Shown here one piece after another: positions 6,384 to 55,106 of a stretch of DNA of 64,000 nt. The stretch's first letter is position 1. Each line of letters begins with the position of its first letter. The stretch is from Candidatus Woesearchaeota archaeon (GTDB lineage Archaea; Nanobdellota; Nanobdellia; Woesearchaeales; UBA9642). Below the pieces are notes generated by a model. That model saw only the letters and a program-made list of their open reading frames with translations, had not been told where the DNA came from and made no database searches. Both the position numbers and the translations under genes were made by a program. Location of the stretch: positions 127,961-191,960 of the forward strand of contig QZIT01000005.1 in assembly GCA_003599145.1 (NCBI GenBank). The letters run 5' to 3'.

Positions 6384-7918
6384 GCATCCTTCACCACATA
6401 CTGATCTCGTTTAGGGCCTGTTGATACAACCAGAATATTTCCTTTGGTGAATTGCTCAAACTCTCTGAAGCTTCTCAGCAGGTCTGGAGGGAAATCAGAA
6501 AAATCTTTTGCATCAGAAATATTCCCACATCCTTCATAGATGCTGAAAACTGGTTGCATCGATTCTAAAAATCCAGGAGAGCGATTAAAGTCTGTATGCA
6601 CTGTTCCTGATGCATCTTCATAGCCGTAATTTATTTTAAACTCATCAACACCGTCAAGACAGTCTGCTTTTGTTAAAATGAAATGAGGGCCGTTGATGGA
6701 AACAGCATAGCTTGCCATCACTGCATCTGTCCATCCTGTTCTTCTTGGACGTGATGTTGTTGCACCGTATTCATATGCTGCTAATCTGATTCCAATACCC
6801 TGAAAGAATGGGTCCGAGCTGTTTGCAAGCTCAAGAACTCTTGTTCTGTTTTCTTTAATAAATTTTACCGTGTCTGATTTATATTTTTCCAATGCTGCTT
6901 CAGCATCTATAGTTCTTGTTTTTTGCAACCTTCTTATTTCGTCCAAATCTATGCTCATGTCTAAAAAAGTTTTTGCTTCATAAAACATGTCATGCTCTGT
7001 TCCTCCGGCACAATAATTTTCAGACGCAACTCCTCCCAATTCTGAAGGAAATGGCCCTCCTCCAACTCTCGTCATGAAAGGATATTTTACAATACCAAAA
7101 GTAATGTCCACATCTTCAGGAGAAAGTCCTACTCCATAGGCTAAACCGCGAATAGAACAATCTGAAGAAGTAACATAAGGATAGGTTCCATATTCTATGC
7201 TCAATCCCAATCCCTGTGCTCCCTCAAGCAGTATTTTTTTCCCTTGGCTGATAAAGTTTTTTAATTCCTTGTCTGTATCCTTGATAAACGGGTTTATTCT
7301 ATCGAGATGAGGCTGCAAGTCCGTTAGAAGTTTGTCAAGGTATGCAGAGACATCAGGAATTGCACCAGGAAAAAGGTTTGCAACTCTTTTCACATTCTTA
7401 TCCAATTGTTTGAGGAGTTTATCCCTATCTCCCAAAAGCATTTCAATGGTTATTCCTCTTCTTGCAGTTTTATCTGCATAGCAAGGTCCTATTCCCCTGC
7501 CTGTAGAGCCAATGCCTCCGTTAGATAAAGATTGGTTTTCAAGTTTATCTTCAAGAATATGATAATCAAAAACAACATGAGCATCTTTGCTTATCATTAA
7601 ATTATTATACGTTACCCCCGCTCTGTCAAGCATGTCTAATTCTTTTGTTAATGCGGAAAGGTCGATGGCCATGCCATTGCCCAACATATTTACTTTTCCT
7701 TCTTTGTCATAAAGAATTCCTGCAGGAATAAGATGCGTGATGATGCTTAAATCTCCGACTTCAATCGTATGGCCTGCATTTGCTCCGCCTGTTCCTCTTA
7801 CAATAACATCTGCCCACTGCGCAAGCAAATCTACAAATTTGCCTTTGCCTGTATCTCCAAATTGATTGCACACTATTGCAGCAATCTGTTTATCTTTTAA
7901 AAGAACATCAAGCGTCAT
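6380..7918 (-). CDS. purA: adenylosuccinate synthetase (long form with insertions)
   Basis: N-terminal GDTGKGK P-loop-like motif and GGANAGHT motif characteristic of AdSS. Confidence 0.85.
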   Translation of the reverse strand: MTLDVLLKDKQIAAIVCNQFGDTGKGKFVDLLAQWADVIVRGTGGANAGHTIEVGDLSIITHLIPAGILYDKEGKVNMLGNGMAIDLSALTKELDMLDRAGVTYNNLMISKDAHVVFDYHILEDKLENQSLSNGGIGSTGRGIGPCYADKTARRGITIEMLLGDRDKLLKQLDKNVKRVANLFPGAIPDVSAYLDKLLTDLQPHLDRINPFIKDTDKELKNFISQGKKILLEGAQGLGLSIEYGTYPYVTSSDCSIRGLAYGVGLSPEDVDITFGIVKYPFMTRVGGGPFPSELGGVASENYCAGGTEHDMFYEAKTFLDMSIDLDEIRRLQKTRTIDAEAALEKYKSDTVKFIKENRTRVLELANSSDPFFQGIGIRLAAYEYGATTSRPRRTGWTDAVMASYAVSINGPHFILTKADCLDGVDEFKINYGYEDASGTVHTDFNRSPGFLESMQPVFSIYEGCGNISDAKDFSDFPPDLLRSFREFEQFTKGNILVVSTGPKRDQYVVKDA

Positions 7919-9363
7919 TTTACCAATCCGTGAGGGTTTCTGTTGATGTATCCTGCACCATCTGAATTCAATTCAATAACTGCCTTTTTCCTAAATTCTT
8001 GTAAATTCATTGCTCCTGCATTTGCCATGGCTGATTTTATTTTCAAAATATCTCTTTTCAGATTTGGCTTTAATCTTCCCGCATAGGGCACTCTTCCTTC
8101 TTCGCCCTCAGCAAAAAAAGTTACAAACCCTCCATGACCGTATCTTCCTAAATTTCTTGCACGTATAGACCCTTCTCCCCACGATGCCACATAAGCAATA
8201 TCATCATCATGCAGGGTAATTCCTCCTCTATCATTGATTTTCTCTCCTGCAGCCTCGAAAAACCTGTTAAAATAACCGCCTAGCATCAAAGCATCTGCAA
8301 CCGTCAAGGCAATAATCATTTCTGCAGAACCAGGAATTCCTCCGTCGGCAATAACAGGAACATAAAGCAAACTTGCATTTTTTTTCAAAAAATCATTTCT
8401 TGCCCTGTCAACTTCAAGCAAGGCAGTCATCGACCCTCTTCCTGTTGATTTTTCCCTGAAGGTTGTACAGGTAGAACCAGGAGACATGCCTACTTTAATC
8501 ATATCTGCGCCTTTTTCCATAAGATACATTGCACCATCGTAGGTTATGACATTGCCTGCACAAATAGGCACAGGAATTTTCATTTTTTTATATTCATCTA
8601 AGACATCTCCCTGAAACTCAGTAAATCCGTCGGAACTGTCAATAACAAACAAGTCAACTCCTGCTTGATGGCCTGCACGAACTCTATTCTGCCATCCTGC
8701 ATGGGTTGTTATGGCAAGCCCTACTTTTAATTTTTCTTTGTCTTTTTTAAAGGCAAGCTTTACTAATCGTCTATTTTCATCCAGAACAACGAGATGCGGT
8801 TGTTTTTCTTTTTCCAATAAAGCAACCGTTTCATCAACAGAAATAGCTGGATTTTGCACGCACAAAACAACAGGATCATACAACATTGCCGTTGTTATAT
8901 TTTCATTCACAGGAATACCCCGTGCAAGATATTCACTATGAATAAACATGCCTAGAAAAACATTATTTCTATCAACAACAGGAATGCTAGAATGGCCGTA
9001 TTTTTCAACAAGTCTCAATGCCTCATCGATAGTTGCGGTTTCTCTTACGGTAATAGGGTCTTCAACAAAGGTCATTTCAGTAGATTTTATTCTTTGGACA
9101 ATGTCAATTTGCTCTTCCAAACTCATGCGCGCAGGCAAGATAGGAAGTCCTCTTTCCTTTGCAAGCGCAAGAGCTAAGTCATATCCTGTTACTGAAGTCA
9201 TTGCTGCACTTAACAGGGGAACTCCCAAAGTAACTCCTGCAAGCGTTGTTTCCAAACTGATACTGCTCATCGTGCAGGTTCTCGGAGTTAAACCTGGAAG
9301 AAGAGAAAACTGCTGAAAAGCATATGCCTGTTTATCAATAACTTTTTTTACCATTAAATCCAC
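7915..9363 (-). CDS. guaB: IMP dehydrogenase with CBS pair
   Basis: Catalytic loop GMSPGSTCTT (IMPDH signature GxGPGSICTT), internal CBS domains, C-terminal GGI... Confidence 0.85.
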   Translation of the reverse strand: MDLMVKKVIDKQAYAFQQFSLLPGLTPRTCTMSSISLETTLAGVTLGVPLLSAAMTSVTGYDLALALAKERGLPILPARMSLEEQIDIVQRIKSTEMTFVEDPITVRETATIDEALRLVEKYGHSSIPVVDRNNVFLGMFIHSEYLARGIPVNENITTAMLYDPVVLCVQNPAISVDETVALLEKEKQPHLVVLDENRRLVKLAFKKDKEKLKVGLAITTHAGWQNRVRAGHQAGVDLFVIDSSDGFTEFQGDVLDEYKKMKIPVPICAGNVITYDGAMYLMEKGADMIKVGMSPGSTCTTFREKSTGRGSMTALLEVDRARNDFLKKNASLLYVPVIADGGIPGSAEMIIALTVADALMLGGYFNRFFEAAGEKINDRGGITLHDDDIAYVASWGEGSIRARNLGRYGHGGFVTFFAEGEEGRVPYAGRLKPNLKRDILKIKSAMANAGAMNLQEFRKKAVIELNSDGAGYINRNPHGLVK

Positions 9364-12530: not shown

Positions 12531-12887
12531 TTATGACTGCATTGCACGAGAAGGAAGAGTTGCAACATAGTCTTTTATTTTATTGCTCCCATACATAACG
12601 GTCGCATGATGCCAATTGCCTTGTGCAGCAATGCTTGTCCACGTCATTTTTAAGCCAGTTCTGCAAACATAATAGAACCCCTGTCTCCAAGTAACTAAAG
12701 GCTCATATCTTCTATGGCCTAATAATTCCTCTTTTGAAATATTTCCTGCATTGCAAAGTTGTTCAACGGCAGTATCAAGAGTTAAACCTGATTGATGAAC
12801 AAGCACATTAACCGTTCCTGCAATATGGTTCATCTCTTTATCAGTCATGCGCGGCTTAACAGATGTGCGATGCTTGGATGGCGCCAT
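12531..12887 (-). CDS. hypothetical protein
   Basis: 118-aa ORF, no motif recognised. Confidence 0.4.
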   Translation of the reverse strand: MAPSKHRTSVKPRMTDKEMNHIAGTVNVLVHQSGLTLDTAVEQLCNAGNISKEELLGHRRYEPLVTWRQGFYYVCRTGLKMTWTSIAAQGNWHHATVMYGSNKIKDYVATLPSRAMQS

Positions 12888-13139
12888 AGTGAGAGAACTG
12901 TTTAAACTTATTTAAAGTTTCTTAATACTACCTCAAACTCATAACAAATTACAGCAAGGTTTATATACCTCCTGAACTTAAAGAGCTTATGGGTGATGTC
13001 ATGGGTTATTTTCAAACCCTGTCCAAGGATAAATTAATGGCGTGGATTGCCGTTGTCATTGGATTTTTGCTGATAATTATTGCCCTCTTGATTTGGTAAA
13101 AAACCAAAGGTTTATATAGGAAAACAGGTAAAGATTACT

Positions 13140-17830: not shown

Positions 17831-18589
17831 ATGGGTGATGATCAGAAGAATTCTAAAGATTTACTCACAGCCATCACTGAGCTGAATACGTCCATCAATA
17901 AAATGATTAAGATTTTTGAGGATGCCAATCAGGAAATGATCGAAGATTACCAGAACACAAGATTGCAGATCAAAGACAAGCTCGATGAGGTAAGCGATCA
18001 GAATGAAAAGATTGCAGAAGGTATTGTAAGCTTGGCGGATATGCTTAAAAAGCCAGAAGAGCATCTTGATGAAATTCATGAACAATATCCTGTCGATACT
18101 ACCAAGCTTCAGGAAGTTTCTTTTAATAACAGAACGGGAATAATGCCTCAGCAGGAACTGCCTGAGCCTCAACAGTACGATTTCAACAGCGACGATCCCT
18201 TTGCAGGAGACCCCTTTGCACAGCAGAATGCGCCTGATAATTTTTCACAGCCTACTCAGCAAAATTACCCTCCTGCTTCGCAAAGCTACAGCGATCCCTT
18301 TGCACAGCCGCGACAATCAGCAAAAAATACACCTGATCCTTTTAGCCAACCAAAGCCTTCCCAACAGCAATATGCTCAGGATCCGTTCGCTCAGCAGGAT
18401 CCCTATGCGCAAAAAGACCCTTTTGCACAGCAGGATTTTTCTGATGGGCAATTCATGCCTCCTCGAAGGCAGGATCCGTTTGCAGAGCAAGACCCTTTCG
18501 CAAAAGGAAATCTTGACATGCCTCCTCTGCCTGATGCTCCCCAAGCACCGGAAAAAAGAGGCTTGTTTTCAAAGCTGATGAAAAAATGA
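17831..18589 (+). CDS. coiled-coil N-terminus + about 9 degenerate DPFAQQ repeats (low-complexity P/Q/F-rich protein)
   Basis: Repeats DPFAGDPFAQQ, DPFAQP, DPFSQP, DPFAQQDPYAQKDPFAQQ, DPFAEQDPFAKG; underlying roughly 18-nt DNA tandem repeats at about 18194-18505. Confidence 0.6.
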   Translation: MGDDQKNSKDLLTAITELNTSINKMIKIFEDANQEMIEDYQNTRLQIKDKLDEVSDQNEKIAEGIVSLADMLKKPEEHLDEIHEQYPVDTTKLQEVSFNNRTGIMPQQELPEPQQYDFNSDDPFAGDPFAQQNAPDNFSQPTQQNYPPASQSYSDPFAQPRQSAKNTPDPFSQPKPSQQQYAQDPFAQQDPYAQKDPFAQQDFSDGQFMPPRRQDPFAEQDPFAKGNLDMPPLPDAPQAPEKRGLFSKLMKK

Positions 18590-18957
18590 CGTCTGAAGCA
18601 GCAAAGGAGTATTTTGTTTCTTTAGTAAAGGCAGCGCAGAAATACAAATCAGCGCCAGCCGTTGAGATTATTCCAAAAGACGACGCTGTTATGATAGGAA
18701 GTGAACCTGCAGAAAAGACTGCCGTAACACAAAAAACAGGAAAGACTTCTTCAGAAGCGTCTTTGCAAAAAAAGAAAAAAAGTTTGTCAAAGAAAAAAAG
18801 AATACATAAGAAAAGCAAAAAAATAGAAAAAAAACATGGCGTACTAAAAAAGAAAACAGCCAAACTGCATCATAAAAAAACTATAAAAAAAACACAGCAT
18901 CACCATAAAACTCAAAAACATAAACTGGCAAAAAAATCACGCAAAAAAAGAGTATAA
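18586..18957 (+). CDS. lysine/histidine-rich basic protein (histone H1/Hc1-like tail)
   Basis: C-terminal about 70 aa is almost all K/H/T (KKKKSLSKKKRIHKKSKKIEKKHG...HHKTQKHKLAKKSRKKRV); ATGA start/stop overlap with the DPFAQQ protein. Confidence 0.55.
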   Translation: MTSEAAKEYFVSLVKAAQKYKSAPAVEIIPKDDAVMIGSEPAEKTAVTQKTGKTSSEASLQKKKKSLSKKKRIHKKSKKIEKKHGVLKKKTAKLHHKKTIKKTQHHHKTQKHKLAKKSRKKRV

Positions 18958-18963
18958 AAAAAA

Positions 18964-19134
18964 TTATAAGTCTTTTGCCATAACAGTTTTTCTTCCGTTT
19001 GCTTCTGCTCTCTTGATAGCATCCTTGATTAACTGCTTTGCTTTCTCATCAAGAGCGTCTGCAAAATCGCCTGCAACATTATAACCCTGAGCAAGCTCTT
19101 TTATTTTTGCCTTGACAATAACTGCATCTGCCAT
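18964..19134 (-). CDS. small histone-fold-like / DUF1931-like protein (not in ORF track)
   Basis: Own translation: MADAVIVKAKIKELAQGYNVAGDFADALDEKAKQLIKDAIKRAEANGRKTVMAKDL (56 aa). C-terminal ...ANGRKTVMAKDL mirrors the archaeal histone end ...HAGRKTIKAEDI. Confidence 0.5.
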   Translation of the reverse strand: MADAVIVKAKIKELAQGYNVAGDFADALDEKAKQLIKDAIKRAEANGRKTVMAKDL

Positions 19135-19190: not shown

Positions 19191-19550
19191 TTATTTTTTC
19201 TTGGGAAGATACTCTTCAACTATTTTCATGATTTTTTTTATGTTTTCGCTGGTAATCGTCAAGGGATATGCAGATAACAGCAATTTCAACTCCTCATCAT
19301 TTCTTGGAAGAATGTCAACAATCTTATCAACGTATTCTTTTTTAAATCGTGGAATTTTTAACTTGTCTATTGCCTCAGCCAATTCTTCTGCTTCCTTTAC
19401 TTTAAGAATGTGAAAATTATCAAGATATTCTTCTGTCTTGGTTGCCCTGAAGCTTAACTCTTCATCTCTTTTCTTAATGGCTTTCAATGCTTCTTTCAAT
19501 TCTGCCATGGAAATGGATTGTTCTTCAAGTACTTCAGGTTTCATAGTCAC
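19191..19550 (-). CDS. rpoF: RNA polymerase subunit Rpo4/RpoF
   Basis: About 119 aa alpha-helical protein directly downstream of, and 4-nt overlapping with, L21e, the conserved archaeal L21e-rpoF arrangement; Rpb4-like composition. Confidence 0.65.
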   Translation of the reverse strand: MTMKPEVLEEQSISMAELKEALKAIKKRDEELSFRATKTEEYLDNFHILKVKEAEELAEAIDKLKIPRFKKEYVDKIVDILPRNDEELKLLLSAYPLTITSENIKKIMKIVEEYLPKKK

Positions 19551-19837
19551 GCCTTTTTTAAATGGACAGGATGCACAATGAATTTTCTTGTTGCATTCAT
19601 ATGCTTGATGGTAACTTCATAGCATCGTCCTTTTTTTCCTGTAATAATGCCGCTTGCGCCATAAAATCTCAAAGGATATTTTCCTTTTTGGACTCCTGGC
19701 TCCATGAGCATATAGACTTTTTCGTTGACTGTAAATTCCTGCAGAAATTTGGTCAAGCTGATTTTTCCCTTTTCAGTCAAGGGCTTGCTCATCTTGTGTC
19801 TGCTCTTTCTTCTGTATCCGCCTTTGCGATGAACCAT
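19547..19837 (-). CDS. rpl21e: 50S ribosomal protein L21e
   Basis: MVHRKGGYRRKSRHKMSK...GKKGRCYEVTI matches L21e. Confidence 0.9.
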   Translation of the reverse strand: MVHRKGGYRRKSRHKMSKPLTEKGKISLTKFLQEFTVNEKVYMLMEPGVQKGKYPLRFYGASGIITGKKGRCYEVTIKHMNATRKFIVHPVHLKKA

Positions 19838-19884
19838 AGGTTAAAGAAATTAGGAACTCTTTAAAAAGCTTTCGCCAAAGGAAA

Positions 19885-20418
19885 TTACGATTTGGCTTCT
19901 TGCAGAACAGTATCAACAGGCAGTTGCAAAAATTGTTCATAATCTGCAATCGCTTTATTGATCATTGCATAGGCAGCGGTTTCCGCACTTTTGAATTCAA
20001 GGGAAGTTAAAACAAAAGACTCTGTCACTTTGTGGTTCATAACTACAGGAACAGACTTAGGAACGTGAATAATAGCATGCAATCGTCGTTCATACACTTC
20101 CGGTTTGACAACCCGGCCATAGTCAATATGAATCCAATTTAAATTACCTTCTTTAACAGGACGATAAACAAAAACATCCTCTGTTTTATCTCTTGGGCTT
20201 TTTAACCCCCTTTCCTGATAAAATCTATCGCTCCTCTCAGAAGAAATACCCAGATCTCCCTGAACTGTTCCAATAGCAGGAACGTCTAGAGTCATAGTAT
20301 AGGACATATACGTCAGATACAAGGTAAGAGCTATCCTTTCTCCAAAATCTCCTGTTAATGGAAAACCTTCCAGTTTAATTTCCGGCTTTCTACTAACAAT
20401 AACTGCATCTAACGTCAT
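19885..20418 (-). CDS. hypothetical protein, paralog A (177 aa)
   Basis: Starts MTLDAVIVSR; shares length, N-terminus and C-terminal AYAMINKAIADYEQ motif with the neighbouring gene. Confidence 0.55.
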   Translation of the reverse strand: MTLDAVIVSRKPEIKLEGFPLTGDFGERIALTLYLTYMSYTMTLDVPAIGTVQGDLGISSERSDRFYQERGLKSPRDKTEDVFVYRPVKEGNLNWIHIDYGRVVKPEVYERRLHAIIHVPKSVPVVMNHKVTESFVLTSLEFKSAETAAYAMINKAIADYEQFLQLPVDTVLQEAKS

Positions 20419-20456
20419 AAATCTGCAGAACTGTTTTTGCGTTTAAAAAGGTTTAC

Positions 20457-20990
20457 TTAAAGCGGTTTAGGGATGCTGTCCTTTATGTCCTTAAAAGAAA
20501 CTTTGATTGCTCGTTTTTTGAGCCGCTCGTAATCAGATATCGCTTTATTAATCATGACGTAGGCAGCATCCTGAGCAAAAAGAAAGTTTTTATCTGTGTC
20601 ATCAAATTTCTCTATACCCTTTTTATTGTATGGAATTGCAACGATTACTGATAAATTGTCAATATATTCTGGATGGCGCATTTTTCCAGCATCTAAGGAA
20701 ATTCTTCCTTCCGGACGAGTGTCTTGTTGATGGTAGATTATATGTTCATCACGCTCAAAGGGCATATCCTTAAAATCGTCAGCGATTATCTCTATGTCTG
20801 CAGTAAGGGTGCCAAGAAAAGGAACTTGAACTTTCAGTCTATAATCAACCTTTGCGCGTGTGATAGTAAGTTTTAAGCCTTGATTGCTCGTAAGTACTCC
20901 CCCTTCATACTTGCAGTCATGAATATATCTGCCTCCTGTTGATAGCACAAGGCTGATTTCTCTAGATTCAATAACCGCATCCAAAGTCAT
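20457..20990 (-). CDS. hypothetical protein, paralog B (177 aa)
   Basis: Starts MTLDAVIESR; C-terminal AYVMINKAISDYER; tandem with paralog A, 38-nt spacer. Confidence 0.55.
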   Translation of the reverse strand: MTLDAVIESREISLVLSTGGRYIHDCKYEGGVLTSNQGLKLTITRAKVDYRLKVQVPFLGTLTADIEIIADDFKDMPFERDEHIIYHQQDTRPEGRISLDAGKMRHPEYIDNLSVIVAIPYNKKGIEKFDDTDKNFLFAQDAAYVMINKAISDYERLKKRAIKVSFKDIKDSIPKPL

Positions 20991-21030
20991 AAGCGGGAGA
21001 ATTGTTTATAGATTTATAAATGTTTAGAAA

Positions 21031-21576
21031 CTACTTTTTCAACTTTTCTTTTTTTGCCTTATCGCTGATAATGGCAGAATTTCCTGTCGGATCTTCAAGA
21101 ATCAATTTGGCTTTTTCCTGTCCCCACAGTATCTTTGTTATTTTTTTCGCCAGATTTTTTGCCTTTTTTCTTTCTTCTTCATCATCGCTATTGTCCCGTA
21201 TATTTTCAACCTGCTTCTGCATTCTGTTCAAAATGCCCTCGACATTGGTTACATAGCCATTTGATGAAGGGCCAGATTCAATGTCCCCTACAAAAGGAAT
21301 CTTGATGGTTGCATTGCTTGATTTTGCAACGCGTATTTTCATATCTGCTTCTGAAGTAATCTCAAGTGTATATTTGCATGGCTCCTTGTCTTCGTCGTTT
21401 TCAATGTCTGCTTTATGATAGCCGCATTTATTGCAGTCCATGGAAAAGAAATAGGTTTTGCCAAAGTAAGGAATATCTTTTTGATAGTCCATCAGCGTCA
21501 ATCCTTTTTGACTGCATACAGGACATATTTGCTCTTCAAGCACTTCCATTTCTTCAGCCATTTGCGCCATAGTCAT
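21031..21576 (-). CDS. ZPR1-type zinc-finger protein (archaeal)
   Basis: CPVCSQKG...IPYFG...MDCNKCGY zinc ribbon followed by beta-rich domain, about 180 aa. Confidence 0.7.
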   Translation of the reverse strand: MTMAQMAEEMEVLEEQICPVCSQKGLTLMDYQKDIPYFGKTYFFSMDCNKCGYHKADIENDEDKEPCKYTLEITSEADMKIRVAKSSNATIKIPFVGDIESGPSSNGYVTNVEGILNRMQKQVENIRDNSDDEEERKKAKNLAKKITKILWGQEKAKLILEDPTGNSAIISDKAKKEKLKK

Positions 21577-21669: not shown

Positions 21670-22071
21670 TTATTCTTCAGACACTTCTTTTGTCTGGCCT
21701 TTTGTCTTGTAAATCTGGGCAAAATTAGGCACAGCAACAACCATGTCTTCACTGAATCCTGCAACATCGCCTTCAATGGCGTCACAGGTTTTCTTAAGCT
21801 TGTTAATGGCTCTTTTCAATTCAACAATGTCTTTTTCTTTTAATGGCCTGATGTTGATTAAGGCAATCGTGTTTCCTTCTCTCAAGGCATCGATAATGGT
21901 TTTAATGTCAGAGAAATCTTCCATAGTAAAAGGCCTTACGATGACCTTCGTTGGCATGTCTCCCTGTTCTGTATCCAGTTCAACATAATCCTCATTAGGC
22001 GTGCCTTCTTCATCATCTTCAAAATCAGTACGGGTAAATGTTTTTTTCAATCCTGCGAAAAACTTTTTCAT
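21670..22071 (-). CDS. sepF: SepF-like cell-division protein
   Basis: VIVRPFTMEDFSDIKTIIDALREGNTIALINIRPL resembles the SepF/DUF552 core. Confidence 0.6.
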   Translation of the reverse strand: MKKFFAGLKKTFTRTDFEDDEEGTPNEDYVELDTEQGDMPTKVIVRPFTMEDFSDIKTIIDALREGNTIALINIRPLKEKDIVELKRAINKLKKTCDAIEGDVAGFSEDMVVAVPNFAQIYKTKGQTKEVSEE

Positions 22072-22130: not shown

Positions 22131-23120
22131 TTATAAATAGGGACCCATTTCTTTCTTCAATTCCTCTATATAATCAACAGGCGACGGGTCTATCCTGTAG
22201 CGCAAGGCCAAAAAGTAGGTGGTTAAATCGCCTATATGGATAGCGGTAAAAAGCTGTGAAAGATAATTTTCCCCTTTGATGTTTAAGGAAGTCACGGTTG
22301 TTTTTCTCCTGATGAGCTTTTCCGTGATGTCCATTCTTTTTTGTATTCTTTTATGGTCAAGATCGCTTTTCAAAAAGATAACATGAAAATGCCCTATGAG
22401 ATGCTCAAAGCCCATGATGGCGTTATGATCTAATTCAGGAAATGCATGGGAGAAAGCCATGACCTTTGCATTTTCATTGAACTGTGTTTTCCATCTGTAC
22501 GCTATGCTGGAAAATTTATTTGAAGAGTAAATGATGGGAATTTTATTGTAGTTTTTTTCTAGTAAATCCTTTGCAATTTTTTCATAGCCTTCTTTTTTCA
22601 GCGCATTGATGGTTTGCCTTACGGCAGTATCCTGGCTTTTCAGGAGTTTTGCGTTTTCTAAAGCACTTAACATAGGGAAGAACATGTAAGCAACGGCGTT
22701 TCTTGGCTGCATGAATTTGGGTATTAACACAATCTGGGTCTTTTCATCCTGAGCAAGCTTTAGCAATCTGCCTCCTGAAGTGATAACCACAATGAGTGCT
22801 TTTTTCTTTCTTGCTTCCCTGTAGGCAGAAATGGTCTCTTCTGTATTTCCGCTGTAAGAACTGGCAAAAACCAACGTCTTTTCATCAATCCAGTCAGGAA
22901 TGTTATAATCTCTGATAACCGTAACAGGAACATTGGCAATATAGCTTTGCAGAATGTCTCCTGCAATGGCACTTCCGCCCATGCCAATAATGACGATTTT
23001 GTCTACAGGCTTATCAACCCTTATATAATCGCCCATTTTATAAGCTTCAGCAATTTGGGATGGCAATTGATCAATTGCCTTTTTCATATCCTGGCTGTCT
23101 AAATTAATCTCCTTTCCCAT
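22131..23120 (-). CDS. bifunctional phosphoglucose/phosphomannose isomerase (SIS domain)
   Basis: IIGMGGSAIAGD SIS motif, about 330 aa, archaeal PGI/PMI family. Confidence 0.75.
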   Translation of the reverse strand: MGKEINLDSQDMKKAIDQLPSQIAEAYKMGDYIRVDKPVDKIVIIGMGGSAIAGDILQSYIANVPVTVIRDYNIPDWIDEKTLVFASSYSGNTEETISAYREARKKKALIVVITSGGRLLKLAQDEKTQIVLIPKFMQPRNAVAYMFFPMLSALENAKLLKSQDTAVRQTINALKKEGYEKIAKDLLEKNYNKIPIIYSSNKFSSIAYRWKTQFNENAKVMAFSHAFPELDHNAIMGFEHLIGHFHVIFLKSDLDHKRIQKRMDITEKLIRRKTTVTSLNIKGENYLSQLFTAIHIGDLTTYFLALRYRIDPSPVDYIEELKKEMGPYL

Positions 23121-33509: not shown

Positions 33510-33545
33510 AAAACTTAATAAACAACCGACGTTTCTTTAGATTGC

Positions 33546-41915: not shown

Positions 41916-42544
41916 ACGGTTGCTTCGAGCTGCTTAATCCTTTCCTTGATGAACTCAATGGTTCTCTTGTTGTCCTGTTCCTGCATGATTTCGCCGCATT
42001 CAGGGCATTTAAAGTTAAAATCAACTGCTTTATCAAAGTCCATTCTTACACAGGCGGATTTGCACATGTAAAAAATGCTGGTGTATTCTTTGCCTAATCT
42101 TTCCCTCAGGCTGACTATTTTATGGTCAGTCATTTTCGTTTTTAAATAGGGAAAAATCTGGTCGTTTAAGTCCCAGTAGCAGATATACCACCCCTTGATT
42201 TTATCTTTTTTTCTCTTGAAAAAGACAATGTTATGCTCCAAAAGCCTATAAAGGATGTTTCTTGTTCTGTGGATTTCTTCATTGACATCTTCTGCAATCT
42301 TGAATTCAGAGATGTTTTTCTTTCCTTTAAGATAATGCACAATAGGCAGTGCCTCATCGCCAACAAGCTCCGAAACAACTTCTTCCATTAATTTGATGGT
42401 TTTAGTCTGCCTTGGTTTTTCTTCTACTTTCGTTGGAATTGTTTTTGCTGCTTTGACTGGCTGTTTAGCAACTTTCGTTATTTTGGTTTTCAAAGGTTTT
42501 GTTTTAACAGGTTTTGTTTTCATAGGCTTTTTGGTTTTTTTCAT
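41912..42544 (-). CDS. tfe: transcription factor E (TFE-alpha) with lysine-rich N-terminal extension
   Basis: wHTH IVHYLKGKKNISEFKIAEDV...ILYRL and C-terminal zinc ribbon C...C...FKCPECG; N-terminal KTKP repeats. Confidence 0.7.
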   Translation of the reverse strand: MKKTKKPMKTKPVKTKPLKTKITKVAKQPVKAAKTIPTKVEEKPRQTKTIKLMEEVVSELVGDEALPIVHYLKGKKNISEFKIAEDVNEEIHRTRNILYRLLEHNIVFFKRKKDKIKGWYICYWDLNDQIFPYLKTKMTDHKIVSLRERLGKEYTSIFYMCKSACVRMDFDKAVDFNFKCPECGEIMQEQDNKRTIEFIKERIKQLEATV

Positions 42545-43260: not shown

Positions 43261-43788
43261 TTATGGAACGTTGATATACACTTCCCCTTTTTGCTGTTTA
43301 GGATAGTTCACGTCAGTGTAATAGTTGATGGTGAACTCGAATTTTGTTTTTCGTCCAGCTTCAAGAAACGATCCAGTTGTACAGTCAATTTCCACTTCTG
43401 TTTCTGCGTTAATAGCAAACGTTGCAGTACCTGCTCCTGCCAAATTCGTAGCTCCAAAGAAGGTAGTACATGTTCCCAATCCACCTGCGCCTGTTGGAGG
43501 ATCATTAATGACAACATCGTCAATAGTTACCTGTTTTCCCAGCTTGTTTTTAAGCAAAAATTTCACATTATAGCTTCCGCCATCTGCAGGTGCTACTATA
43601 TTAACACTCGTAGCAAGCATCTTGTCCTTATCGCACAAGAATTCAATACCGAAATTGCATCGTTCAGAAACAAATGCATCGGGCCTTAATACTCCAAAAT
43701 ATGCCAATGCTCCAATCATGACCAGAATAACTAAAAACGCCCAACCATAGGTTGTCAAAAATTCCAAAGCTGCCTGCGCTCTTTTCAT
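43261..43788 (-). CDS. archaeal type IV pilin-like protein (class III signal peptide)
   Basis: MKRAQAALEFLTTYGWAFLVILVMIGALAYFG (start re-set from the track's 43923 to this Met); paralog of the adjacent pilin. Confidence 0.7.
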   Translation of the reverse strand: MKRAQAALEFLTTYGWAFLVILVMIGALAYFGVLRPDAFVSERCNFGIEFLCDKDKMLATSVNIVAPADGGSYNVKFLLKNKLGKQVTIDDVVINDPPTGAGGLGTCTTFFGATNLAGAGTATFAINAETEVEIDCTTGSFLEAGRKTKFEFTINYYTDVNYPKQQKGEVYINVP

Positions 43789-52989: not shown

Positions 52990-53538
52990 GTGGCAATGGT
53001 TTCTTTGGTTGTCGTTGCCTTTTTTGGAGTAACCGAAGGAGCAGCAATAAGAAGAATAAGTGTTCCTTCACAGCCAGTGCAAGAAACTACAGCACCAGTT
53101 TGCTCTCTTTGCGGAGATGTCAATGGAGATAGGACTGCGTTTAATATTCAGGATAAAATGATTTTTGATAGTTATGCAAAGAATAATGGACCAGCACCTT
53201 CCTGCATGGCCCAAGCAGACTTGGACGGAGATGGCGTTGTCGGCAGTCTTGTAGACATAAGAATGTGGGAAGATGCCTATGCAGGCCGCATTACTCCTAC
53301 CTGTCAGCAAACTCCATTAACAGCAATAAACTGCCAAAAATGCGGAGATCTCAATGGAGACAGTATCGTCAATATCGTAGATGAAATGCTGATGGATGAC
53401 TTTGTTTGGAGAGGCGGAGCAGCGCCTGCATGCTTAAGCAAGGCTGATTTAAATCAGGATGGCATTATCAGCGACACTTCAGATGCGCTTTTATTGAAAA
53501 GCTATCTTTGGAAAGCAGGGCCTGAACCTGTTTGCTGA
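52990..53538 (+). CDS. secreted protein with four dockerin/EF-hand-like calcium-binding repeats (GTG start)
   Basis: GDVNGDRTAFNIQD, ADLDGDGVVGSLVD, GDLNGDSIVNIVD, ADLNQDGIISDTSD...LLKSYLWKAG; N-terminal hydrophobic segment. Confidence 0.55.
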   Translation: MAMVSLVVVAFFGVTEGAAIRRISVPSQPVQETTAPVCSLCGDVNGDRTAFNIQDKMIFDSYAKNNGPAPSCMAQADLDGDGVVGSLVDIRMWEDAYAGRITPTCQQTPLTAINCQKCGDLNGDSIVNIVDEMLMDDFVWRGGAAPACLSKADLNQDGIISDTSDALLLKSYLWKAGPEPVC

Positions 53539-53547
53539 GGTGCAACA

Positions 53548-53853
53548 ATGGAACAAAAAATGATGTACTATAGTTTAATAGCAGTAGTAGGCATGGTTGC
53601 CGTGGTCAGTTTAGTAGTCATACTTGTTGGAGCGAAGCAAAACTCATTAGCGGCAAATGCTGTCGCTCCATTAACCTATGAACAAATAGATCCTGATGGA
53701 GATGGGCCACTTCCGGTTTCCCGATGTGCCAGAGCATATGCGAGATATTATGACTCAACAACAGATGAAAACTGTGTTGACACGTACCTTATCTGCGGTG
53801 ATGTTGGCATGTTTAGGTTTTCACACGATTGTTACTCTGCAAAAGACTATTAG
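53548..53853 (+). CDS. small secreted/membrane Cys-containing protein
   Basis: TM/signal MMYYSLIAVVGMVAVVSLVVILVGA; DPDGDGP motif; 5 Cys. Confidence 0.4.
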   Translation: MEQKMMYYSLIAVVGMVAVVSLVVILVGAKQNSLAANAVAPLTYEQIDPDGDGPLPVSRCARAYARYYDSTTDENCVDTYLICGDVGMFRFSHDCYSAKDY

Positions 53854-53989
53854 TTATTACGTATAATATGCATTTTACGTACTAGTCATGCGTAAGTACG
53901 GCTAGAACGCCTTATTTTTGCTAAAAAGTAGGGGTTTTTTGATAAAACACTTCTAAATCTTTATAAACCTGAAAACAGTTCTGCAAAAC

Positions 53990-54511
53990 ATGGCATTAAG
54001 CAAGTACTTACGATTTGCAGCTGCGTATGATTCTTTAGCAGATATTTGTGGAAACGAACCTCCAACAAAGCAACTGGTAATAGCCCATATGGCGAGAAGA
54101 TTTGCGGAAGAAGAATTTAAAATGCGTTCTGGAACCACTACGGATAGAAAGGCTACCGAAGAAGCATATGTAAGCGCCATGCTCCAAAGAGAAGGCCTTG
54201 TAACAACAGGCGTTGGTTATGGCGTAGCTTTGCCTCATGGAGTAGTTGAAGTGCAGAGTGGTGTTTTACAGCCCCAGCTTGATTTGGGAGTGTATATCAT
54301 TCCAGAATTAGATTGGGAATCTTCTGACAAAAAACCTGCTCAGCTCATCTTTGCCACGTTATGCCCCAGAGATATCATTGGGGGTCATTTAAACGTTCTG
54401 GCAAGGTTAAGCTACACTTTAAAAACTGAAAAAATGAGAACCTTAATAAGGGATTCGGTAATTTCAGGAAATGAACTAGAATTAAAAAAGCTTTTAGACT
54501 ATCAACCTTAG
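53990..54511 (+). CDS. PTS EIIA type-2 (PtsN/fructose-IIA-like) domain protein, standalone
   Basis: LQREGLVTTGVGYGVALPHG (compare REKMGSTGIGNGIAIPHG with phosphorylatable His) and PAQLIFATLCPRD...HLNVLARLS match the EIIA-2 fold signature. Confidence 0.65.
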   Translation: MALSKYLRFAAAYDSLADICGNEPPTKQLVIAHMARRFAEEEFKMRSGTTTDRKATEEAYVSAMLQREGLVTTGVGYGVALPHGVVEVQSGVLQPQLDLGVYIIPELDWESSDKKPAQLIFATLCPRDIIGGHLNVLARLSYTLKTEKMRTLIRDSVISGNELELKKLLDYQP

Positions 54512-54548: not shown

Positions 54549-55106
54549 ATGAAAGAAGACGATATTCACAGAGAAATCTTAAAAGAAGCCCTTGCTGAGA
54601 AAGAGGAAAAGCCATCAAAAGTATGGCCTTATATTTGGGTAGGCATAGGCTTATTGATTATTATTTTGCTTATTTTAGCCTATACAGGAGGCATCTCAGG
54701 CATTTATTTCATCAAAGGAAGAACTGCAAGCGGAGAAATTCAAAATTTTCAAGTGGATTTTGAAGAGGGCAAGGTCATTTTTGAGCCTTCTGTCTATGAA
54801 GCGTTAAAAAACCAGTTTTTGGCAAATTACACAGCGGAATTTAAAGTCTGCCTATTGGGAGAAAAGCAGGGAAAGAACTATATTATAACAAGTTTTTACA
54901 CACCAATCATTTTCTCGCAGGATTTTACCAGTGTACACAGCGTACAGTGCAACAGCTCAACCATCATTCCCTTGCACAGCCATCCTGTAGATAGTTGTTT
55001 ATTTTCAGATCAGGATAAGGCATCATTTAAAGCATTTAAAGAGGTAAATCCTGATGCGATCTATGGATTGATGTGCTCGGCAAATCGATTTTCATTCATA
55101 AAATGA
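54549..55106 (+). CDS. membrane-anchored JAB/MPN (JAMM) metalloprotease-like protein
   Basis: N-terminal TM helix; LHSHPVDSCLFSDQD fits the JAMM motif H-x-H-x7-S-x2-D. Confidence 0.55.
   Translation: MKEDDIHREILKEALAEKEEKPSKVWPYIWVGIGLLIIILLILAYTGGISGIYFIKGRTASGEIQNFQVDFEEGKVIFEPSVYEALKNQFLANYTAEFKVCLLGEKQGKNYIITSFYTPIIFSQDFTSVHSVQCNSSTIIPLHSHPVDSCLFSDQDKASFKAFKEVNPDAIYGLMCSANRFSFIK

Follow-up and report, generated by a model that had tools for sequence, protein, structure and literature searches.

The window analyzed here, a stretch of 64,000 nucleotides (nt), carries on its minus strand two genes of equal length in tandem, placed by NCBI records on a 576-kb contig of Candidatus Woesearchaeota archaeon. 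The upstream paralog, gene B (20457-20990; hypothetical protein C4573_02560, RJQ16920.1), and the downstream paralog, gene A (19885-20418; hypothetical protein C4573_02555, RJQ16919.1), each begin with an ATG codon, encode 177 residues, and are separated by a gap of 38 nt. Both proteins start with MTLDAVI(V/E)SR, and both carry the motif AAY(A/V)MINKAI(A/S)DYE about 20 residues from the C terminus. The two genes lie directly upstream of the genes for L21e and RpoF, and in the position, exact coordinates, and shared termini of the pair we agree with the initial annotation of this DNA, which was made from the sequence alone.

A and B are real native protein genes and old tandem duplicates, both of which have been kept under purifying selection. 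BLASTP aligned the two proteins with 32% identity (E = 6e-17), and they are homologous over their full length. The Smith-Waterman local alignment score lay 23 standard deviations above that of shuffled sequences, and the homology extends beyond the two motifs, since the middle of the proteins, without the conserved termini, still scored 9 standard deviations above shuffles (0 of 500 shuffles reached its score). At the codon level, identity was 53% at positions 1 and 2 and 30%, approximately random, at position 3, and different synonymous codons were used at 34 of the 56 residues that are identical in A and B, both motifs included. Recent gene conversion as the origin of the conserved termini is rejected on these grounds, the identical residues of the motifs often being encoded by different synonymous codons. 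Divergence estimated by the NG86 method was 0.79 at nonsynonymous sites (dN) and 4.3, which is saturated, at synonymous sites (dS). Conservation of the proteins combined with saturation of the synonymous sites argues for an old duplication with selection on both copies, in line with the ancient duplication, retained as a pair, that had been proposed for these genes. No signal of an internal duplication or repeat was detected within A or B.

The gene models are well defined. In both genes, the ATG is the earliest possible start, and the stop-to-stop frames reach just 8 and 5 codons farther upstream. The codon usage of A and B falls in the middle of the distribution for the window, as expected of native genes, with B at the 17th distance percentile. 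Read out of frame, the genes become outliers, and such controls lie at or above the 98th percentile. The guanine-plus-cytosine (GC) content of the two genes is unremarkable. Their products are predicted to be soluble and mildly acidic, with isoelectric points of 5.8 and 6.4, and neither a signal peptide nor a membrane segment was found in A or B.

As the initial annotation had stated, the proteins could not be placed in any family, and no assignment came from profile searches of any library or database that we used. With A and B as queries, Pfam and NCBIfam gave no family match at E values up to 1, the best PHROGs matches reached only 0.05 to 0.08, and PADLOC gave none. Among PDB sequences, no relative was found with the single proteins or with the profile, the sole match being gshAB at an E value of 1.3. 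A word-indexed search of 5.8 billion clustered proteins retrieved for A and for B only the query itself, each being a singleton cluster, and in an exhaustive HMMER profile search covering 1.84 billion representatives the only sequences recovered were A, B, and P0003, a 1454-residue Ig-like repeat protein. We consider the latter match spurious, as its E value of 1e-4 arises from the summation of eight weak matches, all to a single beta-hairpin. Back-translated patterns were also run against genome, metagenome, and viral contigs, with negative results, in collections that do not contain the source contig and hence offered no self-match as a positive control. A tblastn search of phage records found nothing better than an E value of 0.03, for an alignment covering one third of the protein.

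Taken together, these searches show that A and B form a two-member family that is new at the sequence level and restricted to this poorly sampled Woesearchaeota lineage. The lineage is isolated, since the closest of 2083 relatives of the neighboring ZPR1 homolog is only 71% identical, and the orphan status of A and B may reflect sparse sampling and fast evolution as much as true novelty. An orphan family in a DPANN genome is not unusual in itself, because the vast majority of lineage-specific DPANN families have no function prediction (Castelle et al. 2021, PMC8204110). Like these hypothetical families, A and B belong to one DPANN lineage, have no functional prediction, and have no detectable relatives elsewhere, a condition that this study presents as the norm for lineage-specific DPANN families (PMC8204110). 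Unlike a typical family of this kind, the A/B family has just two members, which stand in tandem in one genome, with strikingly conserved termini and a shared promoter element.

On the minus strand, a PGI/PMI-type sugar isomerase gene (22131-23120) is followed by SepF (21670-22071), the ZPR1 homolog (21031-21576) directly upstream of B, then B, A, L21e (19547-19837; Pfam 1.6e-19, NCBIfam equivalog), RpoF/Rpb4 (19191-19550), which overlaps L21e by 4 nt, and a 56-residue histone-fold-like open reading frame (ORF). We compared this arrangement with 18 Woesearchaeota/Nanoarchaeota loci anchored on ZPR1 (13 from species-representative genomes and 5 from metagenomes, with ZPR1 identities of 55-71%) and with 3 loci anchored on L21e, screening all six-frame ORFs by tblastn and by unfiltered hmmsearch (--max). 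No relative of A or B was present in any of the 21 loci. SepF and ZPR1 are conserved as a pair, often with PGI and glucokinase genes ahead of them, and L21e and RpoF are likewise conserved as a pair. In the other loci, L21e was never the next gene after ZPR1, so the two pairs are joined only in this genome. The gene that follows ZPR1 differs in nearly every relative. In the closest relatives (L014-L018), ZPR1 is followed by a convergent block of PhoH/PIN, an unrelated protein of 194-204 residues, a metallophosphoesterase, TFE, and TFB. In three further loci (L004, L005, and L011), L21e-RpoF lies upstream of SepF in divergent orientation on the other strand. In the L21e-anchored loci (L019-L021), a 117-residue ORF unrelated to A/B precedes L21e and is followed, after L21e, by RpoF, a DUF655-like gene, and S13. 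Hidden homologs of A/B could not be recovered by synteny either: the ORFs downstream of ZPR1 in the 18 loci, including the 194-204-residue genes of L014-L017, are unrelated to the pair.

These comparisons place the A/B pair at a junction, formed by rearrangement in this lineage, of the conserved SepF-ZPR1 and L21e-RpoF pairs. A and B are an insertion specific to the lineage and do not belong to any conserved gene cluster of ribosome and RNA polymerase components. The initial annotation had taken the neighborhood to be a conserved one and had suggested from it a housekeeping role; that suggestion is not supported, with the pair absent from 21 of 21 related loci and the ZPR1-L21e junction found only here.

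Several observations were made on genes around these loci. The 194-204-residue gene of L014-L017 (approximately 7180-8375 of those loci, minus strand) is conserved between PhoH/PIN and the metallophosphoesterase, has no Pfam family, and represents another uncharacterized lineage-specific family, and the TFE of the same block has a counterpart in the window at 41924-42388. The 56-residue ORF that comes after RpoF (18964-19134, minus strand) is histone-fold/DUF1931-like, with weak Pfam and NCBIfam matches, whereas the gene after RpoF in the more distant DPANN loci L019-L021 is DUF655-like. Between this histone-like gene and aCPSF1 are two plus-strand genes without a significant Pfam family. One (17831-18589) encodes a 252-residue protein with an N-terminal coiled-coil-like region and then a tail, rich in Q and P, where a DPFAQ-like motif is repeated about 10 times (the THOC7 match of this protein, at an E value of 6e-4, is below the cut-off), and its stop codon overlaps the start of the other (18586-18957), which encodes an extremely lysine-rich protein of 123 residues.

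The promoters of A and B follow the pattern of the genome. Among the 51 ORFs in the window with 170 or more residues, 26 have a TATA-like box (TTTATAAA, TTTTAAA, or TTTAAA) that starts between -40 and -20 from the ATG, where about 6% would be expected by chance, and the commonest start is at -29 or -30. B has the box TTTATAAA (21013-21020, minus strand) starting 30 nt before its ATG, and A has TTTTTAAA (20442-20449, minus strand) starting 31 nt before its ATG, inside the 38-nt gap between the two genes. L21e has the same form, TTTTTAAA (19860-19867, minus strand), about 30 nt before its ATG. Because the boxes cluster about 30 nt before the ATG, far above chance, the transcripts of A and B are probably leaderless, and the pattern implies that mRNAs in this Woesearchaeota genome are mostly so. 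Since A, B, and L21e each have their own TATA-like box, A and B need no cotranscription with L21e-RpoF. A minority of genes have a GGAGGTG-like Shine-Dalgarno sequence instead, for example upstream of 18964-19134 and of 43261-43788.

A second element, AAACARTTCT, is shared by the promoters of the two paralogs. In B it is AAACAATTCT (20998-21007, minus strand; -17 to -8 from the ATG), and in A it is AAACAGTTCT (20427-20436, minus strand; -18 to -9). The window contains four exact copies, compared with 0.84 expected, and none of 100 shuffles reached four. Each copy starts at -16 to -18 and is placed after a TATA box and ahead of an ATG. The third (53973-53982, plus strand; -17 to -8) precedes a gene with a PTS_EIIA_2 domain (53990-54511; Pfam 1.3e-16), where the identity with A extends to a 14-mer, AAAACAGTTCTGCA, that contains the 10-mer of A and has its identical copy at 53972-53985. 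The fourth (12894-12903, minus strand; -16 to -7) precedes a gene for a 118-residue protein with a DnaA_C-type helix-turn-helix (HTH) (12531-12887; Pfam Bac_DnaA_C 4.8e-10). The motif is post hoc for three of the four sites, and the copy before the HTH gene, which came to light once the other three had served to define the motif, is an independent match. Related loci totaling 183 kb contain the 10-mer six times, never in a promoter context.

The survival of this element before both paralogs despite saturated synonymous sites suggests that it is under constraint. AAACARTTCT may function as an operator or as a promoter-proximal element that defines a small regulon, with the reservation that three of its four sites are post hoc. 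For the 118-residue HTH gene, coregulation with A and B is one possibility; another is that its product regulates the pair.

The surroundings of the EIIA-like gene hold further unusual genes. At 54549-55106 (plus strand), 37 nt downstream of it, is a gene whose 185-residue product has a single predicted membrane segment and a motif, HSHP...S..D, that resembles the JAMM/MPN metalloprotease site, without a Pfam match at E values up to 0.01. Just upstream of the EIIA-like gene, two plus-strand genes (52990-53538 and 53548-53853) encode Cys-rich proteins in which the motifs CGDxNGD and DLDGDG recur, resembling the repeats of dockerins or of calcium-binding proteins.

The structure of the proteins was predicted with AlphaFold2 from an input alignment consisting of the two paralogs only. 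The model of A is moderately confident, with a predicted local distance difference test score (pLDDT) of 62.9 and a predicted template modeling score (pTM) of 0.62, and its confidence peaks in the segments that are conserved between A and B. It has strands at residues 6-20, 29-46, 50-59, 80-90, 93-105, and 108-119, a short helix at 64-69, and, after a linker of low confidence, helices at 145-164 and 168-175. The model of B is poor (pLDDT 40.8), yet its elements follow the same order. Structural matches of A included RnfG, MucB/RseB, 12 GntR-UTRA domains, START domains, Mdm12/Mmm1, Aha1-N, and SecB, each of which aligns with about half of the protein. Foldseek searches of PDB and BFVD gave nothing at an E value of 1e-3 or below and no template modeling (TM) score above 0.35; in BFVD the best E value was 2e-3, with TM scores up to 0.31. 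The Foldseek matches of best probability were UTRA and chorismate-lyase-like domains. What the structural matches have in common is a long helix with an antiparallel sheet that packs on it or wraps it. Many modules that bind ligands, lipids, or peptides are built in this way, and membership of A/B in none of these groups is established. On weak evidence, A and B resemble a variant of such common sheet-plus-helix binding modules.

Comparison with individual superfamilies gives partial likenesses. With START/Bet v 1 (SRPBCC) proteins, including archaeal Aha1-type ones, A and B would share an antiparallel sheet that grips a long C-terminal helix, a size in the 150-200-residue range, and high sequence plasticity. 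The predicted order of elements in A/B (three strands, a short helix, three strands, and two helices) would agree with that of START (beta-alpha-alpha-beta6-alpha) or of UTRA (two alpha2-beta3 repeats) only if a circular permutation were assumed, and membership in the START superfamily finds no support at the profile level, where Pfam and NCBIfam gave no match at E values up to 1. Compared with UTRA/chorismate-lyase-like domains (3cnv, 3f8m, and 2nwi/DUF98), A and B show no signal in sequence, and neither has an HTH domain attached; the helices stand elsewhere in the chain, so that a circular permutation would be needed, an internal repeat is not detectable, and TM scores do not exceed 0.34. 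Proteins of the TULIP type (botulinum OrfX3/P47, BPI/SPLUNC, and the SMP domains of Mdm12 and Mmm1) align with about half of A at 4-13% identity, were not recovered by Foldseek, and belong to a family that is otherwise eukaryotic and bacterial.

Other assignments were considered and rejected. The RNA polymerase subunit Rpb8/Rpo8 gave no match with the RNA_pol_Rpb8 profile, and its structural match spans 77 residues at TM scores of 0.20-0.26. An N-terminal nucleophile (Ntn) hydrolase of the proteasome beta/HslV type, considered for the conserved Thr2 and the length of 177 residues, and a levivirus-coat-like reading both have no profile support and weak structural scores. The alpha and beta paralogs of EndA, the heterotetrameric tRNA-splicing endonuclease with subunits of about 180 residues, gave no Pfam or NCBIfam match at E values up to 1 and likewise have weak structural scores. 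EndA ends in C-terminal beta strands, whereas the predicted A and B end in helices. Derivation from the jelly-roll of the neighboring ZPR1 homolog is rejected as well, since hhalign against a 40-sequence ZPR1 alignment gave a probability of 1.6%, with a match of 15 columns around VP.[IL]G.

We tentatively favor the reading that A and B, which are native, old orphan paralogs at a rearrangement junction, have an accessory role as a binding or adaptor module that is regulated and possibly hetero-oligomeric. At low confidence, each protein would form a six-stranded antiparallel beta-sheet (two three-strand meanders) packed on a conserved amphipathic C-terminal helix. A sheet that wraps a helix in this way is the design of small-molecule, lipid, and peptide binders such as UTRA/chorismate-lyase-like domains, START/Bet v 1, TULIP, and SecB. 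A and B hardly differ in their N-terminal strand and C-terminal helix, and these two segments may represent either a shared folding core or a pseudo-symmetric, putative A-B interface. It is this predicted architecture, together with the near identity of the two segments, that points to a binding or adaptor module and possibly to a hetero-oligomer. Through the shared AAACARTTCT, the pair might be coregulated with the HTH gene and the EIIA-like gene. We do not think that A and B are components of the translation or transcription machinery.

The strongest competing explanation, which we regard as rather unlikely, is that A and B belong to a known ligand-binding superfamily (UTRA/chorismate-lyase-like, START/SRPBCC, or TULIP) from which they have diverged to an extreme degree, the homology being hidden only by the isolation and fast evolution of the lineage. 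Against common descent stand the absence of any hidden Markov model signal even at E values up to 1, an order of elements that fits neither START nor UTRA without circular permutation, the lack of an internal-repeat signal, and structural scores that are all under the usual thresholds for homology. We find it improbable that the pair is the cargo of a mobile element, virus, or defense island inserted downstream of ZPR1. The variability of the stretch after ZPR1 in nearly every relative would be expected in that case, as would a pair known from a single genome, but GC content and codon usage match those of the host genome, PHROGs gave only E values above 0.05, and PADLOC, phage records, and viral contigs contained no relative. 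Moreover, the surroundings contain no integrase, transposase, tRNA, or flanking repeat (the window has a single tRNA, at 33545), the genes on both sides are ordinary cellular ones, and the promoter architecture is typical of the genome.

Slightly less credible still is a heterodimeric housekeeping factor of translation or transcription that is expressed together with L21e and RpoF, an idea that draws on the position of the pair next to these genes. The absence of the pair from all 21 related loci weakens it, as does a ZPR1-to-L21e junction unique to this genome, and the protein database searches found no relative in any other archaeon. The separate TATA boxes of A, B, and L21e also speak against joint expression, the short Rpb8 matches (77 residues at TM scores of 0.20-0.26, with no Pfam Rpb8 match) against a polymerase subunit, and the neutral-to-acidic isoelectric points against charge-based binding of nucleic acids. 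That A and B are chance or decaying ORFs without function, as the lack of homologs outside this genome might invite one to suppose, is effectively refuted by their conservation pattern, which comprises identical lengths, similarity of the full-length proteins at z = 23, and saturated synonymous sites; codon usage is typical in frame and atypical out of frame, and both genes have canonical TATA boxes at -30.

A far more specific proposal, which we put forward as a long shot, is that A and B are the founding members of a new family, a heteromeric sheet-wraps-helix carrier of a hydrophobic or host-derived ligand (such as a lipid or a cofactor) in a DPANN symbiont, where it would have been newly invented or have changed so far that its origin is no longer recognizable. 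Such a carrier would assemble through the N-terminal strand and the C-terminal helix, would resemble SMP/TULIP or START lipid-transfer modules in function, and would be switched together with the EIIA-like and HTH genes through an AAACARTTCT operator.

The main practical value of these results is corrective: the pair lies close to L21e-RpoF because the genome was rearranged, not because the neighborhood is functionally conserved, and for this reason A and B should not be annotated as translation or transcription factors. If the weak structural lead is true, they would constitute a module for binding or carriage that is specific to one lineage of DPANN archaea, a group that depends on its hosts for lipids and metabolites and in which most lineage-specific proteins are uncharacterized. 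The shared promoter element and the sharp leaderless architecture offer small, testable handles on regulation in an uncultivated Woesearchaeota lineage.
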